Shown here: positions 210 to 8,575 of the stretch, piece by piece | Position numbering within the stretch: position 1 is the first letter of the stretch | Layout: the number at the start of each line of letters is the position of its first letter | Assembly (NCBI GenBank): GCA_965205655.1 | Contig: CBDBIJ010000141.1 | Location: forward strand, 1-10,035 | Reading direction: 5' to 3' | Length of the DNA: 10,035 bases | From: Candidatus Latescibacterota bacterium | GTDB taxonomy: Bacteria > Latescibacterota > UBA2968 > UBA8231 | Made by a program: the position numbers and the translations under genes | The notes under the pieces: model-generated | The model's input: only the letters and a program-made list of their open reading frames with translations | Told to the model about the DNA's origin: nothing | Database searches by the model: none

Positions 210-1853
210 TCAGCGCCACACGTCGACGGAGGCGCTTTTTCCGTAGGAGCTGCCGACGATGCGCCAGTATCCATTCGTCTCCCCCCCGACCACGATGACG
301 TGGATCTTCTGTTTGGGGAACATGTGGATGGGCTCGTCGTCCGCTGCCTTGAGCATGGTGGCGTAGGGCTCGACACCTTTCAGCGCCCCAGGGTAGACGT
401 AGTTCTGCACGAGCTGATAATCCCAGTACTCTCCCGCGGGCATGAGGGCGTTGTCGTAGATGAAGTCGATGAGTTTCTCTTTGGTGTCAAAGCCGCCCCG
501 GTCGATGAACTGGCGGGCGGTGATCGGGTCGAGTAGAAGCGTCGGCGAATTAGTCGGGTTTATGCCCCGCAGGAGATTTCTGACGTGCTCGCGCCAGTAA
601 CGCTCGCGGAGGCCCAGGTGGAAGGAGGTGGAGCGGCCTCCGGAGAAGGCGCTGACGACGCTTTCGTCCGGTTCGAACCCATGTTGCACGTGAAAGGGCT
701 CCCACGGGCTGCGCTCCTCATTCTCAGCGAAAGTGACGCTGTTGTAGGCGTAGTTGTTGCCCTGTGATCCGAGGTAGGTGATCTCCGGCACTGAACCTCC
801 CTGCAGATTCTGCGACAGCAGTCCGTAGGCGCGGCCGATGGTGGCATTGGCGTGGTTGTACGGGCCCAGGGCACCGATGCCCCAGTTCATGTCGATCTCG
901 CGACGGATCGGACCATTGACGACAGCCATGGATGCCCCCGAACTCGTGGTGCTGGCGCGGGCTGTAACCTCGGTGGAGGCGAGGGCGAGAATGACGGGGA
1001 AGTACTCCGGTCTGGCGCCGGCCATGACGGCGTTGACGGCCACCTTTTCGACCGTGTATTCCCACGCCTCGCGAGTGAGGGTAGGCCGCATGCGCCCCAC
1101 GACCTCGTCAGATCGCCGGCTCGTGCCGGCCAGCATTGCTTCCACGCGCTCCTCGGTGGGCAGCACGATGGGCAGCTTGTCGGTCCAGTTGCTTTCGAGA
1201 AAAAGCTGCTGGAGGCTCTCCTCGGTGTCCGGATCGACCAACCTGGGAGTGGAGCGCTCGAAGTCGACCTGCTTCTGCTCCTCGCCGGTGAGCGGCTTCG
1301 TCAGGGCATCGACGACCTCCTGCATGAAGGGCCGTCCAGTGATTGCATCGGCGCCGTCGACGTAGGCGCGCAGCTCATCGGGCGACTTGCCCATGACGGG
1401 TTGCGGTACGAAGGCGAAGCGCAGATTGGGCACCCCTTTCTGGCTCGACGAGGCGCGCACGAGGGGCTCGAAGATGTCGGTCTGAATCGATGCTGTCGGT
1501 ATGTCGTACTCTGTCTCGAGGATGATGCACTGGTCGGCGACCGCCGGCGCGCAGGTGCTTCAGTGGCCCACGGCGACGACCGCCGTGCCTCCCTTCTGGC
1601 GGATCTCTTCGTAAAGCTCATTGTCGCGTTCGTAGTAGACCCCGACTTTGCCGCGGACTTCGGTGTGCACCTGCGGCATGTTGTCGGCGAACCAGTTTCG
1701 CATCTGTTCGATGAGCTTGTCACCGTCGTCGAAGCGGCAGTCCACGAGATAGGTGGGCCCCTCCTCGAGGCTCGCGGGCCGCGGCGCCATCCCCTGCTGA
1801 GTGATGGTGGGCGGGTACCCCATCGGGTTCATCACAACTACCTGATTACTCAC
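210..1853 (-). CDS. UGSC-family-like selenoprotein (Sec98, U-S-T-C motif) fused to a large C-terminal domain of unknown function; 547 aa with TGA read-through
   Basis: GTG start at 1851-1853 with AGGAGGA 7 nt upstream. After the TGA at 1560-1562 the frame continues without a stop (STCAPAVADQCIILETEYDIPTASIQTDIFEPL) into the GTG of ORF 210..1460. 1644 nt = 548 codons. The context VAVGH-U-STC is UxxC, and a SECIS-like hairpin follows. The C-terminal part has WTDKLPIVLPTEERV, TVEKVAVNAVMAG, NGPI, ANATIGRA and ENEERSPW, motifs I recall from proteins associated with UGSC/thioredoxin domains. Confidence 0.88.
1527..1559 (-). promoter_or_regulatory. Putative bacterial SECIS element
   Basis: mRNA after UGA reads AGCACCUGCGCGCCGGC-GGUC-GCCGACCAGUGC. 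Upper stem CGGC/GCCG closes a GGUC loop (1539-1542) that begins 17 nt after UGA. Lower stem is GCAC(C)UG/CAGUGC. Folded by eye only. Confidence 0.75.
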
Positions 1854-1860
1854 TGCGGTT

Positions 1861-1867
1861 TCCTCCT
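1861..1867 (-). promoter_or_regulatory. Shine-Dalgarno site of the selenoprotein gene
   Basis: AGGAGGA on the minus strand, 7 nt before the GTG at 1853. Confidence 0.8.
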
Positions 1868-2623: not shown

Positions 2624-2649
2624 CGCGAGTTCAACCAGTCAACGCAACA
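2624..2649. repeat. IS30 terminal inverted repeat (transposase 3' side)
   Basis: 26 bp; 18/26 identical to the reverse complement of 3845-3870. Confidence 0.88.
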
Positions 2650-2671
2650 CCTTCGTCAACGCAACACCTTC
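2638..2671. repeat. Perfect 17-bp tandem duplication, GTCAACGCAACACCTTC x2
   Basis: Copies at 2638-2654 and 2655-2671, overlapping the inner part of the IR and the last transposase codons. Confidence 0.95.
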
Positions 2672-3808
2672 ATTGAAGCGTTCTGCGGGTGAAACGAACC
2701 CCAACGTCTTCCGCGGGCGCTGGTTCAGTTGAAGAGCGACTCTGTTCAGGTCGGCTTGGGAGAATAGCGACAGATCGGTCTTCCTCGGGAAGTACTGTCG
2801 AAGAAGGCGATTCGTGTTCTCATTTGTGCCTCGTTGCCAGGGACTCTGAGGATCACAGAAATACACCTCGACGTCAGTTGCGATCGAGAACTCCTTGTGC
2901 CGAGCTAGCTCCATTCCTCGATCCCAGGTAAGGGACAACCGCACCGCGGAGGGGAGTCGTTTCACCTGGCTGATCAGCGCTCTGACAACGGTCTCGGTGT
3001 CTTTGCCGTTGAGCTTCACGAGCATCGTGAACCGAGACTGCCGCTCCACCAACGTGGCGATGTGCGTGTTGTTCGACCCCGAGATCAAGTCTCCCTCCCA
3101 GTGGCCGGGAACGGCGCGGTCCTCGATCTCGGCAGGCCGCTCGCTGATGGATACGGCGTCGACGATCCGGCCTCTCGGCTGATCGCGTGTGCTTGCCTTC
3201 TTGGATCGCCGCATCATCCTTCGCGTCCGCAGATGCGCAATGAGGTCCTTGTTGAGTGCCCCGCGTGCCTGGATGAAGAGAGTTCGATAGATCGTTTCGT
3301 GGGATATCTGCATATTTCCTAAAAGCGCATACTCCCGCTTCAGCCATCCCGATATCTGCTCAGGTGACCACTTCAGGCGTAGCTTGTCCGCCACGACTCG
3401 CCGCAAACGAAGATTGGATGCGAGTCGGCAGCATTTCGGCCGGCTGGCGCGCGTCCAGGCTGCTTGGTCGGCGACGTTTGCTCGGTACCTTTGCCGCCCG
3501 CCATTGCGGGCAATCTCTCGGCTAACCGTCGAGGGTGCACGCTCAACAGCGGCCGCAATTATTCGTATCGATTTTCCCGCAGCGATACCTCGAGAGATCT
3601 CTTCACGCTCTTCCCAGCCAAGAGCCCATCGAGAGCGTCGACGCGGCATTGGTACGATGCCCCCATTGGCGGTGATGACACCATGAATCGACGCCGGATG
3701 CTTCCCGAGCGCCCGACCAATATCGCTATGCGACTGGCCGCTCTTCCATCGACGCCATACCTCCAACTTCTGTGACGCGGACAATCCTGGTCGTCCCATT
3801 TGAGCCAT
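2639..3808 (-). CDS. IS30-family DDE transposase (about 389 aa)
   Basis: N-terminal HTH regions (IGRALGKHPASI; IAAAVERAPSTVSREIARN), WSPEQISG, SHETIY, catalytic GHWEGDLI / LTWDRG / PWQRGTNENTN, and LNQRPRKTLG. ATG 3808 is preferred over ATG 3817 because AGGAG (3818-3822) lies 9 nt upstream of it. Confidence 0.96.
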   Translation of the reverse strand: MAQMGRPGLSASQKLEVWRRWKSGQSHSDIGRALGKHPASIHGVITANGGIVPMPRRRSRWALGWEEREEISRGIAAGKSIRIIAAAVERAPSTVSREIARNGGRQRYRANVADQAAWTRASRPKCCRLASNLRLRRVVADKLRLKWSPEQISGWLKREYALLGNMQISHETIYRTLFIQARGALNKDLIAHLRTRRMMRRSKKASTRDQPRGRIVDAVSISERPAEIEDRAVPGHWEGDLISGSNNTHIATLVERQSRFTMLVKLNGKDTETVVRALISQVKRLPSAVRLSLTWDRGMELARHKEFSIATDVEVYFCDPQSPWQRGTNENTNRLLRQYFPRKTDLSLFSQADLNRVALQLNQRPRKTLGFVSPAERFNEGVALTKVLR

Positions 3809-3844
3809 GTGCAACATCTCCTATGATTAGATTAGTGGGGAGAA

Positions 3845-3870
3845 TGTTGCATTGACCGATTGAATATACC
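3845..3870. repeat. IS30 terminal inverted repeat (transposase 5' side)
   Basis: TGTTGCATTGACCGATTGAATATACC; inverted partner of 2624-2649. Confidence 0.88.
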
Positions 3871-6994: not shown

Positions 6995-7489
6995 CTAATA
7001 GTCCGAATTTTGCGAGCCGCTCTCTTGTCTGTCGAAGCGAATTTTTCCGCTCGATGCGCGCATGAAGTACTCCTCCACCTTCACCTTGGACCGCGGAAAG
7101 TTCCGGCGGATCTCGTCGACGACGGCGCGGATCTGTTGCGGGTCTTCATCCAGGTCGAGCAGGAGCCGAGCGTAGAGGAACAGCAGGGCCTGCTTGTTGC
7201 GGTCGATTTCCAGCGACTTCTCGAAGTAGGCCCGCGCCTCCTGCAGCTTACCCTGTTCAGCAAGAGCCTTGCCCATGAGCAAGTTGGGCTCCGCTTCCTC
7301 CGGGTAGAGCTCGAACAGCACTGTTGCCAGATCGCGCAGAGATTCTCCCTGCAGCTCCGGCTTCCCCTTGGGATCAGGCCCGGCCGCCAGATGCGCGTAA
7401 GTGCTCGCCTGATGTCGCTCGAGCAGGGCGAGAGCCACACCTACCACGGCTACGTAGATGAGGAAACGGAGCGATTTGAAATATCGCAT
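6995..7489 (-). CDS. Membrane-anchored tetratricopeptide-repeat protein
   Basis: N-terminal hydrophobic helix (FLIYVAVVGVALALL) and a TPR consensus (PEEAEPNLLMGKALAEQGKLQEARAYFEKSLEID), followed by a second degenerate repeat. Confidence 0.8.
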   Translation of the reverse strand: MRYFKSLRFLIYVAVVGVALALLERHQASTYAHLAAGPDPKGKPELQGESLRDLATVLFELYPEEAEPNLLMGKALAEQGKLQEARAYFEKSLEIDRNKQALLFLYARLLLDLDEDPQQIRAVVDEIRRNFPRSKVKVEEYFMRASSGKIRFDRQESGSQNSDY

Positions 7490-7522: not shown

Positions 7523-8575
7523 CTACAGGCCCTCCTGGACCTCTTTCTTGCGAACCTTCCAAATAAAGGCGTCGTAGTAGTAGTGGAGCAGGGCGAAAGA
7601 CGACACGAGGGAGTAGCTGAACAGATCGAAATTCGTGTTGAATCCGACAACGCCGAATCCGAAATCACGTGTGTAGCCCTCTACGAGCGCGTGATACACC
7701 AGGGCGTAGGCGGCGCATAGCAGGACGAACGCCTTCAAGTTGCCGGGCTTGCCAAGATAGGCGAGGAAGGCGGATTCACCGCCCATGCGCGCGAGCTTGT
7801 TCTTCAGATAGAAATAGACCATGACGATGTACTGCATGCCGTGCATGATTCGATGAGCGACGGCAAAAACGAGTAGGAACGTCGTGTTGAAGCTCGTGTA
7901 GTACCACAGAAAGTAGCTGGAGAGCAAGAACAGATACTTGAGCGGGTTCAGAGTATAGCCCTGGCGGACACACCAGATCGCGTGGCCGGCGTATACGACG
8001 AGATAGGCGATCGCAATCGTCCACGAAATCCAGTGAACGAGGTGGACGGTTTCGGCGGCGATGGGGATGCGCCACTCGTGGAGCATACGGACCCAGATGA
8101 CCGACCACAAAGGAGAGACCACCAGCATGTTGACGAAAAAGATCCAGTTGAAGAGCAGGTCGAACTTGCCCGTGATCGCCGTCCCCGCCTTTGCCTTGAA
8201 ATCGTAGATGCGGGAGAATCCGTACTGCTGCATGAGGCTGTGCTGGTGATCCCACAGGGTGACGATGAGCACGAGACTCAGCGGCGCGTAGCGCATGGCG
8301 ACGTAGGCCAACAGAACGAGGACGACCGGCCCGACGATGAAGCGATCGCGCCAGCGATTGAACTCGACGGACGAACCGTATACGCGCAGCCAGGTGGCGA
8401 AATGATGCGGGACCGTGACCCAGACGGCGATGGCTGCGAGGGCCGCTCCGGGCAGGTACTCGTCTGACAAAAGGCCCGCGAACACGGCCACAAATGGCAG
8501 CGTCAGGAACCAGATCCAGTCAGTCCTGCGATCGATTATATAGGCGTGCGTGAACGGGGCGGCGATGCTACTCAT
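7523..8575 (-). CDS. Uncharacterised polytopic membrane protein with His motifs
   Basis: 350 aa with about 9-10 hydrophobic segments. Motifs: TVPHHFATWLRVY, WDHQHSLMQQYGFSRIY, HRIMHGMQY, LLHYYYDAFIWK. Confidence 0.8.
   Translation of the reverse strand: MSSIAAPFTHAYIIDRRTDWIWFLTLPFVAVFAGLLSDEYLPGAALAAIAVWVTVPHHFATWLRVYGSSVEFNRWRDRFIVGPVVLVLLAYVAMRYAPLSLVLIVTLWDHQHSLMQQYGFSRIYDFKAKAGTAITGKFDLLFNWIFFVNMLVVSPLWSVIWVRMLHEWRIPIAAETVHLVHWISWTIAIAYLVVYAGHAIWCVRQGYTLNPLKYLFLLSSYFLWYYTSFNTTFLLVFAVAHRIMHGMQYIVMVYFYLKNKLARMGGESAFLAYLGKPGNLKAFVLLCAAYALVYHALVEGYTRDFGFGVVGFNTNFDLFSYSLVSSFALLHYYYDAFIWKVRKKEVQEGL

Follow-up and report, generated by a model that had tools for sequence, protein, structure and literature searches.

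A putative two-domain UGSC-type selenoprotein encoded across an in-frame UGA in Candidatus Latescibacterota

A single frame interrupted at codon 98

A 10,035-nucleotide stretch of DNA from a Candidatus Latescibacterota bacterium (hereafter the window) carries on its minus strand two open reading frames in a common frame, of 97 amino acids (1853-1560, GTG start) and 416 amino acids (1460-210, GTG start), which raises the question of whether they are two genes or a single gene in which the intervening TGA is read as selenocysteine (Sec). The initial annotation proposed the latter, a hidden 547-residue selenoprotein with Sec in a UxxC motif. Read from 1853 to 210, the strand contains one frame broken only by the TGA of codon 98 (1562-1560, in the context GH-U-STC), and translation with TGA as U gives 547 residues with this as the sole internal TGA and a further TGA at the end. 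The other elements of that proposal are likewise present: 33 codons without a stop (1559-1461) link the TGA to the second GTG, the 97-aa frame has a strong ribosome-binding site (Table 1), and no Shine-Dalgarno-like site precedes the GTG at 1460. The join is more than chance: the UGSC family profile PF24696 matches across the TGA with 67.3 bits (cut-off 25), while the 97-aa frame alone scores 19 bits and the 416-aa frame alone has no Pfam match. The UGSC-type assignment made at the outset thus stands above the family cut-off. The gene is single-copy in this 4.0-Mb, 84%-complete genome. A promoter and terminator scan made no minus-strand call, and a plus-strand reading of 210-1853, which contains several stops and lies on the wrong strand, was rejected.

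Table 1. Features of the predicted UGSC gene (positions in the window).
Feature	Positions	Strand	Basis
Shine-Dalgarno AGGAGGA, 7 nt upstream of start	1861..1867	-	sequence
Whole gene (predicted), 547 aa, Sec98, GTG start, terminal TGA	210..1853	-	translation; homologs align over about 1-547
UGSC domain PF24696, residues 7-166	1356..1835	-	Pfam match and structure model
In-frame TGA, predicted selenocysteine codon 98	1560..1562	-	homologs have Cys or TGA
Predicted SECIS apical hairpin, 4-bp stem and GGUC loop	1535..1546	-	synonymous constraint; TGA versus Cys genes
C-terminal 'Unknown_1' domain, residues ~200-547	213..1256	-	confident model; no Pfam or NCBIfam family

The residue that homologs place at position 98 is the most direct guide to how this codon is read. 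A protein search scored 8000 candidates, 7931 of them at E <=0.001, and we examined the best 120. Among these, all 77 full-length proteins (520 aa or longer) have Cys at position 98, and all 77 likewise have Cys at position 101. The other 43 begin at query positions 107-141, just past the TGA, as expected if gene callers cut the gene after the UGA; the prediction that standard callers would split it is borne out. At the DNA level, codon 98 is TGA in 101 and a Cys codon in 59 of all 160 loci that cover it, with no other codon found, and C101 is invariant (160/160). All 89 genome loci covering the codon have TGA. They comprise the present locus, eight from relatives and 80 from species genomes of Chloroflexota, Rokubacteria/Methylomirabilota, Latescibacterota, Poribacteria, Spirochaetia and others; 14 more distant genome loci, in which codon 98 is uncovered, were left out. 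A metagenome scan with a Cys homolog as query supplied 80 loci, of which 71 cover the codon (59 Cys and 12 TGA). A base-call error at the TGA is excluded by its presence in 88 of the 88 other genome loci. Furthermore, 87 TGA genes end in a mixture of stop codons (40 TAG, 34 TGA and 13 TAA), yet neither TAA nor TAG ever occurs at codon 98; the internal TGA is constant and so behaves unlike a stop.

In a FastTree phylogeny of 144 distinct sequences (99 TGA, 45 Cys), computed with column 98 left out and rooted at the midpoint, all Cys genes fall into a single clade (support 1.0) within the TGA genes, consistent with one change. Because the Cys sequences came from one query, ancestral Sec is a valid reading for this sample only. 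Farther out, 61 distant representatives were taken from the library-wide search; column 98 is covered in 27, several of them misaligned, and holds Cys in just seven, so part of the wider family manages without the motif. Several distant full-length paralogs (P0125, P0134, P0136, P0139, P0150 and others) keep the two-domain build and have lost U/C-x-x-C, with Met, Ser, Thr, Gly or Ala at position 98, which may point to a branch that is non-redox or non-catalytic.

Downstream of the TGA, the coding sequence bears a second constraint. Of 96 four-fold sites in the 101 TGA genes, the five with the lowest entropy are those of codons 102-106 (0-0.47; median 1.32). Among the 59 Cys genes this constraint is relaxed, with entropies of 1.15 at codon 103 and 1.44 at codon 104. 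Counting the U of UGA as nucleotide 1, codons 102-106 fold into a 4-bp stem, nt 17-20 with 25-28, around a GGUC loop at nt 21-24; the outer pair rests on the first base of codon 107. After duplicate, gapped and non-Ser99 rows were dropped, all four pairs are present in 65 of 66 TGA genes versus none of 51 Cys genes, the inner pair by itself in 66/66 versus 23/51, and the mean pair probability is 0.87 versus 0.07. A compensatory change occurs in one sequence only and stability shows no excess over shuffled sequences (z -0.76 to +0.85), so the case for a SECIS element rests on constraint and position. Rfam had no match within the window.

Two further genes of the same genome carry comparable hairpins. 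The selD gene has a GGUC loop in the same register (nt 21-24), and fdhA, a formate-dehydrogenase-type molybdopterin gene (G000:C104:16230, L200), combines an in-frame TGA with a GGUC hairpin whose loop lies at nt 22-25; fdhA is, judged by these features, another selenoprotein gene of this genome. When the genome was scanned strictly for a TGA followed by a GGUC tetraloop, five matches were in the exact register, two of them with open frames (the UGSC gene and selD). The same scan at other offsets gave 2-20 matches and it missed the 5-nt loop of fdhA, so it is no selenoproteome screen.

From this comparative rather than experimental evidence, we predict with near certainty that the UGA at codon 98 is decoded as Sec, as first suggested, and the two apparent genes are very probably one selenoprotein gene. 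A complex of SelB, GTP and Sec-tRNA(Sec) would bind the GGUC hairpin, 17-28 nt from the UGA (U = 1), and would insert Sec98 to yield a two-domain protein of 547 residues.

Family assignment and domain models

UGSC proteins are among the most abundant selenoproteins of the GOS ocean survey, in which 255 UGSC-containing selenoproteins were counted (PMC2398784). They are named in lists only in the portions of two other papers that we consulted (PMC1976440, PMC7539508), and the relevant part of a 2026 review still lists UGSC as predicted and of unknown function (PMC13188914). No biochemical study of UGSC proteins was found in the literature covered, which excludes most subscription journals. The present protein shares with the family (PF24696, NF041046) the PF24696 match, found in 89 of 90 aligned members, and a Sec in UxxC at the corresponding position; some of the full-length Cys homologs are labelled 'UGSC family (seleno)protein' at NCBI. 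The motif here, however, is U-S-T-C rather than U-G-S-C and so lacks the G-S of the family name, and the protein carries a C-terminal domain of 350 aa. It falls outside the short NF041046 equivalog (50.3 bits against a cut-off of 125).

The initial annotation overrated the novelty of this gene. A UGSC/Unknown_1 fusion with the same two-domain build was already reported in 2008 (Fig. S1A of PMC2398784), and two of the UGSC sequences in Dataset S1 of that paper are USTC reads, one of which (JCVI_READ_1095469428582) continues into the same C-terminal domain. Neither the family, nor the fusion, nor fused USTC reads are therefore new. The Unknown_1 block of Fig. S1A corresponds to residues 272-325 here, an unscored match by eye like that to the fused read, and its highlighted Cys is Ala280 in our protein. 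Position 280 is Ala in 97 of the 101 TGA loci and divides the 61 distant representatives into 32 with Ala and 28 with Cys, so the Unknown_1 Cys marks a subgroup. Since the NF041046 cut-off is failed and this Cys is missing, we file the protein, on its sequence, as a PF24696-domain protein of a fused USTC subgroup. In the portions of PMC2398784 covered, we found no full-length sequence, SECIS analysis or link to TrxB.

AlphaFold2 models the whole protein with a pLDDT of 88 and a pTM of 0.87, and residues 200-547 with 95 and 0.93. In VIA comparisons of residues 27-193, the matches are parallel alpha/beta domains, the best of them with a Z of 10.0 and an rmsd of 4.8 over 138 residues; the top 50 rows are receiver, periplasmic-binding and Rossmann-like domains, and no thioredoxin-fold protein is among them. 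The model of the UGSC domain is a parallel alpha/beta fold of the flavodoxin/receiver-like kind, in which U98-x-x-C101 comes just after strand 3, whereas a thioredoxin-like fold was supposed for the family in the sections of PMC2398784 available to us.

The C-terminal domain matches no Pfam or NCBIfam family over residues ~200-547, and the whole model has no Foldseek match at E <=0.001. Three chains of class I fumarate hydratases align with the C-terminal domain at a Foldseek E of ~8e-4 and an rmsd of 15-17 A; we did not accept homology. In VIA its highest Z is 5.6 (89 residues), a score that OmpA-like domains also reach, and no Z is 8 or more. Invariant residues of this domain include D225, R341, E377, W384 and H388. 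Sequence searches of the PDB with two profiles gave three matches each (best E 0.35 and 0.17), which are not meaningful, and the closest ESM Atlas clusters are hypothetical proteins without names. This lack of a match is no proof of a new fold.

Gene neighbourhood and proposed function

The commonest neighbour of the UGSC gene is a TrxB-like gene, present in 24 of 151 loci at a median of 10 nt downstream. Counting only loci with at least 1 kb of downstream DNA, it occurs in 22 of 121 (8 of 79 TGA loci, 14 of 42 Cys loci) and is missing in the other 99, and the present window has no such neighbour. The TrxB-like neighbour, found for example at locus L111 beside a Cys ortholog, has an intact CxxC and scores 275 bits against TIGR01292, below its cut-off of 343. 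We also examined seven of 24 matched annotated plasmid records. Two name trxB in the gene run: an Arthrobacter plasmid with one run trxB-trxA-Unknown_1-UGSC, and Variovorax SRS16, where trxB lies three genes upstream. Two others have a different FAD oxidoreductase instead and three have no such flavoprotein; a transporter gene is near in most of the seven. Where UGSC and Unknown_1 are separate genes, in distant relatives, they are adjacent in the cases examined.

In the window itself, a TauD-like gene ends 61 nt upstream of the UGSC gene. The pairing recurs in one other locus only (L187, 30% identity), so TauD is not a conserved partner. The TauD-like gene is split into two pieces (~4116-3869 and 2625-1914) by a 1243-bp IS30 element on the minus strand (2626-3868), whose terminal inverted repeats are imperfect and whose target duplication is 3 bp long. 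The genome contains 23 near-full-length copies of this element at 98-100% identity, some interrupted by other insertions. At its right end, a perfect 17-nt tandem duplication (2638-2671) overlaps the stop region of the transposase; since the alignment of most other copies extends along all 1243 bp, the duplication is not peculiar to this contig. Elsewhere, also on the minus strand, a hydrophobic ORF of 350 aa that has several His pairs (7523-8575) lies between an aldo-keto reductase before it and a TPR protein after it (6995-7489), and an ORF at 1-71 starts ~140 nt past the stop of the UGSC gene and continues beyond the contig end. Neither ORF matches Pfam or NCBIfam, and the first residues of the latter suggest a possible SAM-dependent methyltransferase.

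The proline and glycine reductase selenoproteins PrdB and GrdB (PF07355) are UxxC selenoenzymes that reduce a small molecule and provide a functional analogy for how the UGSC protein may work. Their UxxC motifs are listed in Table 1 of the 2026 review (PMC13188914). Membership of the PrdB/GrdB family itself was rejected, as none of 90 aligned members matched PF07355 at E up to 1; a search of this genome found no PF07355 protein, though its controls were blank too.

The most likely function that we can propose for the protein is that of a thioredoxin-system-dependent reductase for a small molecule, a proposal that we consider evenly balanced between right and wrong. For catalysis, electron flow and the substrate part of the mechanism, we infer the following: the Sec98 selenolate of U98-x-x-C101 would attack the substrate, which the C-terminal Unknown_1 domain would help to hold; Cys101 would resolve the selenenylsulfide; and NADPH would re-reduce it via the TrxB-like flavoprotein, either directly or through thioredoxin. 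More tentatively, the fused USTC subfamily as a whole might represent a widespread, NADPH/TrxB-fed selenoenzyme in which a flavodoxin-like Sec domain is joined to a 350-aa partner with a fold not in the PDB, reducing an imported small molecule.

The strongest competitor, which we judge unlikely, is that U98 and C101 bind a metal or Fe-S cluster, in a hydro-lyase-like or electron-transfer role, with no selenenylsulfide cycling. It draws on the structural matches and on one residue: the C-terminal domain most resembles, though weakly, Fe-S fumarate hydratases of class I (TM 0.25-0.28 at a Foldseek E of 7.6e-4; VIA Z 5.6 over 89 residues), the N-terminal domain has as its highest-scoring match (Z 10.0) a chain from the activation complex of methyl-coenzyme M reductase, and H388 is conserved in all 151 loci covering that position. 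Such scores, however, are no higher than common alpha/beta arrangements give, with the rmsd of 15-17 A and the Z tied with OmpA-like domains noted above. Moreover, there is no third invariant Cys, position 280 being mostly Ala in the TGA loci and position 406 Gly here, and the TrxB neighbourhood is a better fit to dithiol cycling.

Selenocysteine machinery and the state of the gene in this strain

If UGA 98 is read as Sec, the host should encode the Sec machinery, as the initial annotation anticipated, and in large part it does. Both selA (563.6 bits) and selB (348.9 bits) score above their cut-offs, and ARAGORN finds a 99-nt tRNA-Sec on contig C15, the only tRNA of the genome with a UCA anticodon. 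The selD gene (G000:C45:11500-12422, L006) is present, with its own Sec TGA, and is spread over three frames by two single-base frameshifts in this assembly. Contigs from three runs (X2, X3 and X4; two samples from two studies, with 5-11 other differing letters over the stretch and a depth of 2-4) are each one base shorter at both sites; in run X1, which has zero differing letters and may be the source, no contig bridges either site. The X2, X3 and X4 contigs also lack a 6-base stretch. The genome's best trxB match (G000:C109:5343-6263, L194) is likewise in frameshifted pieces, and this assembly may carry indel errors. All eight relatives with the TGA form have selB, which discriminates little, since 36 of the 41 genomes searched have it.

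These lesions bear on a different possibility, that the gene is a Sec gene by descent and silent in this strain, either because selD is truly frameshifted or because IS30 cuts transcription, with a 97-aa fragment or nothing as its product. We regard this as improbable. In its favour are the two selD frameshifts together with the broken trxB (both in G000), the 23 near-full-length IS30 copies, which suggest recent genome turnover, and the position of one of them inside the TauD-like gene just upstream, where it could be polar. Against these stand the X2, X3 and X4 contigs, each without the extra base at both selD sites, and the location of both sites in short same-letter runs; selA, selB, tRNA-Sec and the Sec signal of fdhA are all intact, and the UGSC gene itself has no lesion. 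The selD frameshifts are likeliest an assembly error or a strain-level variant.

Far less probable still is that the TGA is a real stop, whether between two separate genes or through a nonsense mutation or base-call error. TGA is indeed the commonest stop of the genome (894 of 1445 long open frames), and split UGSC and Unknown_1 genes do occur in distant relatives, but here the break falls inside PF24696 rather than at a domain boundary, the codon is TGA or Cys in 160/160 loci and never TAA or TAG, the SECIS constraint is confined to TGA genes, and the second ORF has no Shine-Dalgarno sequence. A variant genetic code with UGA as Trp or Gly throughout the genome (tables 4 or 25), for which the in-frame TGA and nothing else speaks, is refuted by TGA ending those 894 frames, the UGSC gene's own included, by Cys as the aligned residue, and by the tRNA-Sec being the only tRNA with a UCA anticodon.

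This copy adds little over other members of the family. For annotation, the consequence is that sequence catalogues hold this protein without its presumed active site, as seen in the 43 of the best 120 homologs that begin just past the UGA. Given a complete two-domain member whose SECIS element is defined, together with Cys orthologs from nature and a candidate partner in TrxB, the function becomes testable, and if the NADPH/TrxB-fed reading is true, the Cys-for-Sec clade would be an easily expressed stand-in for finding the reaction.
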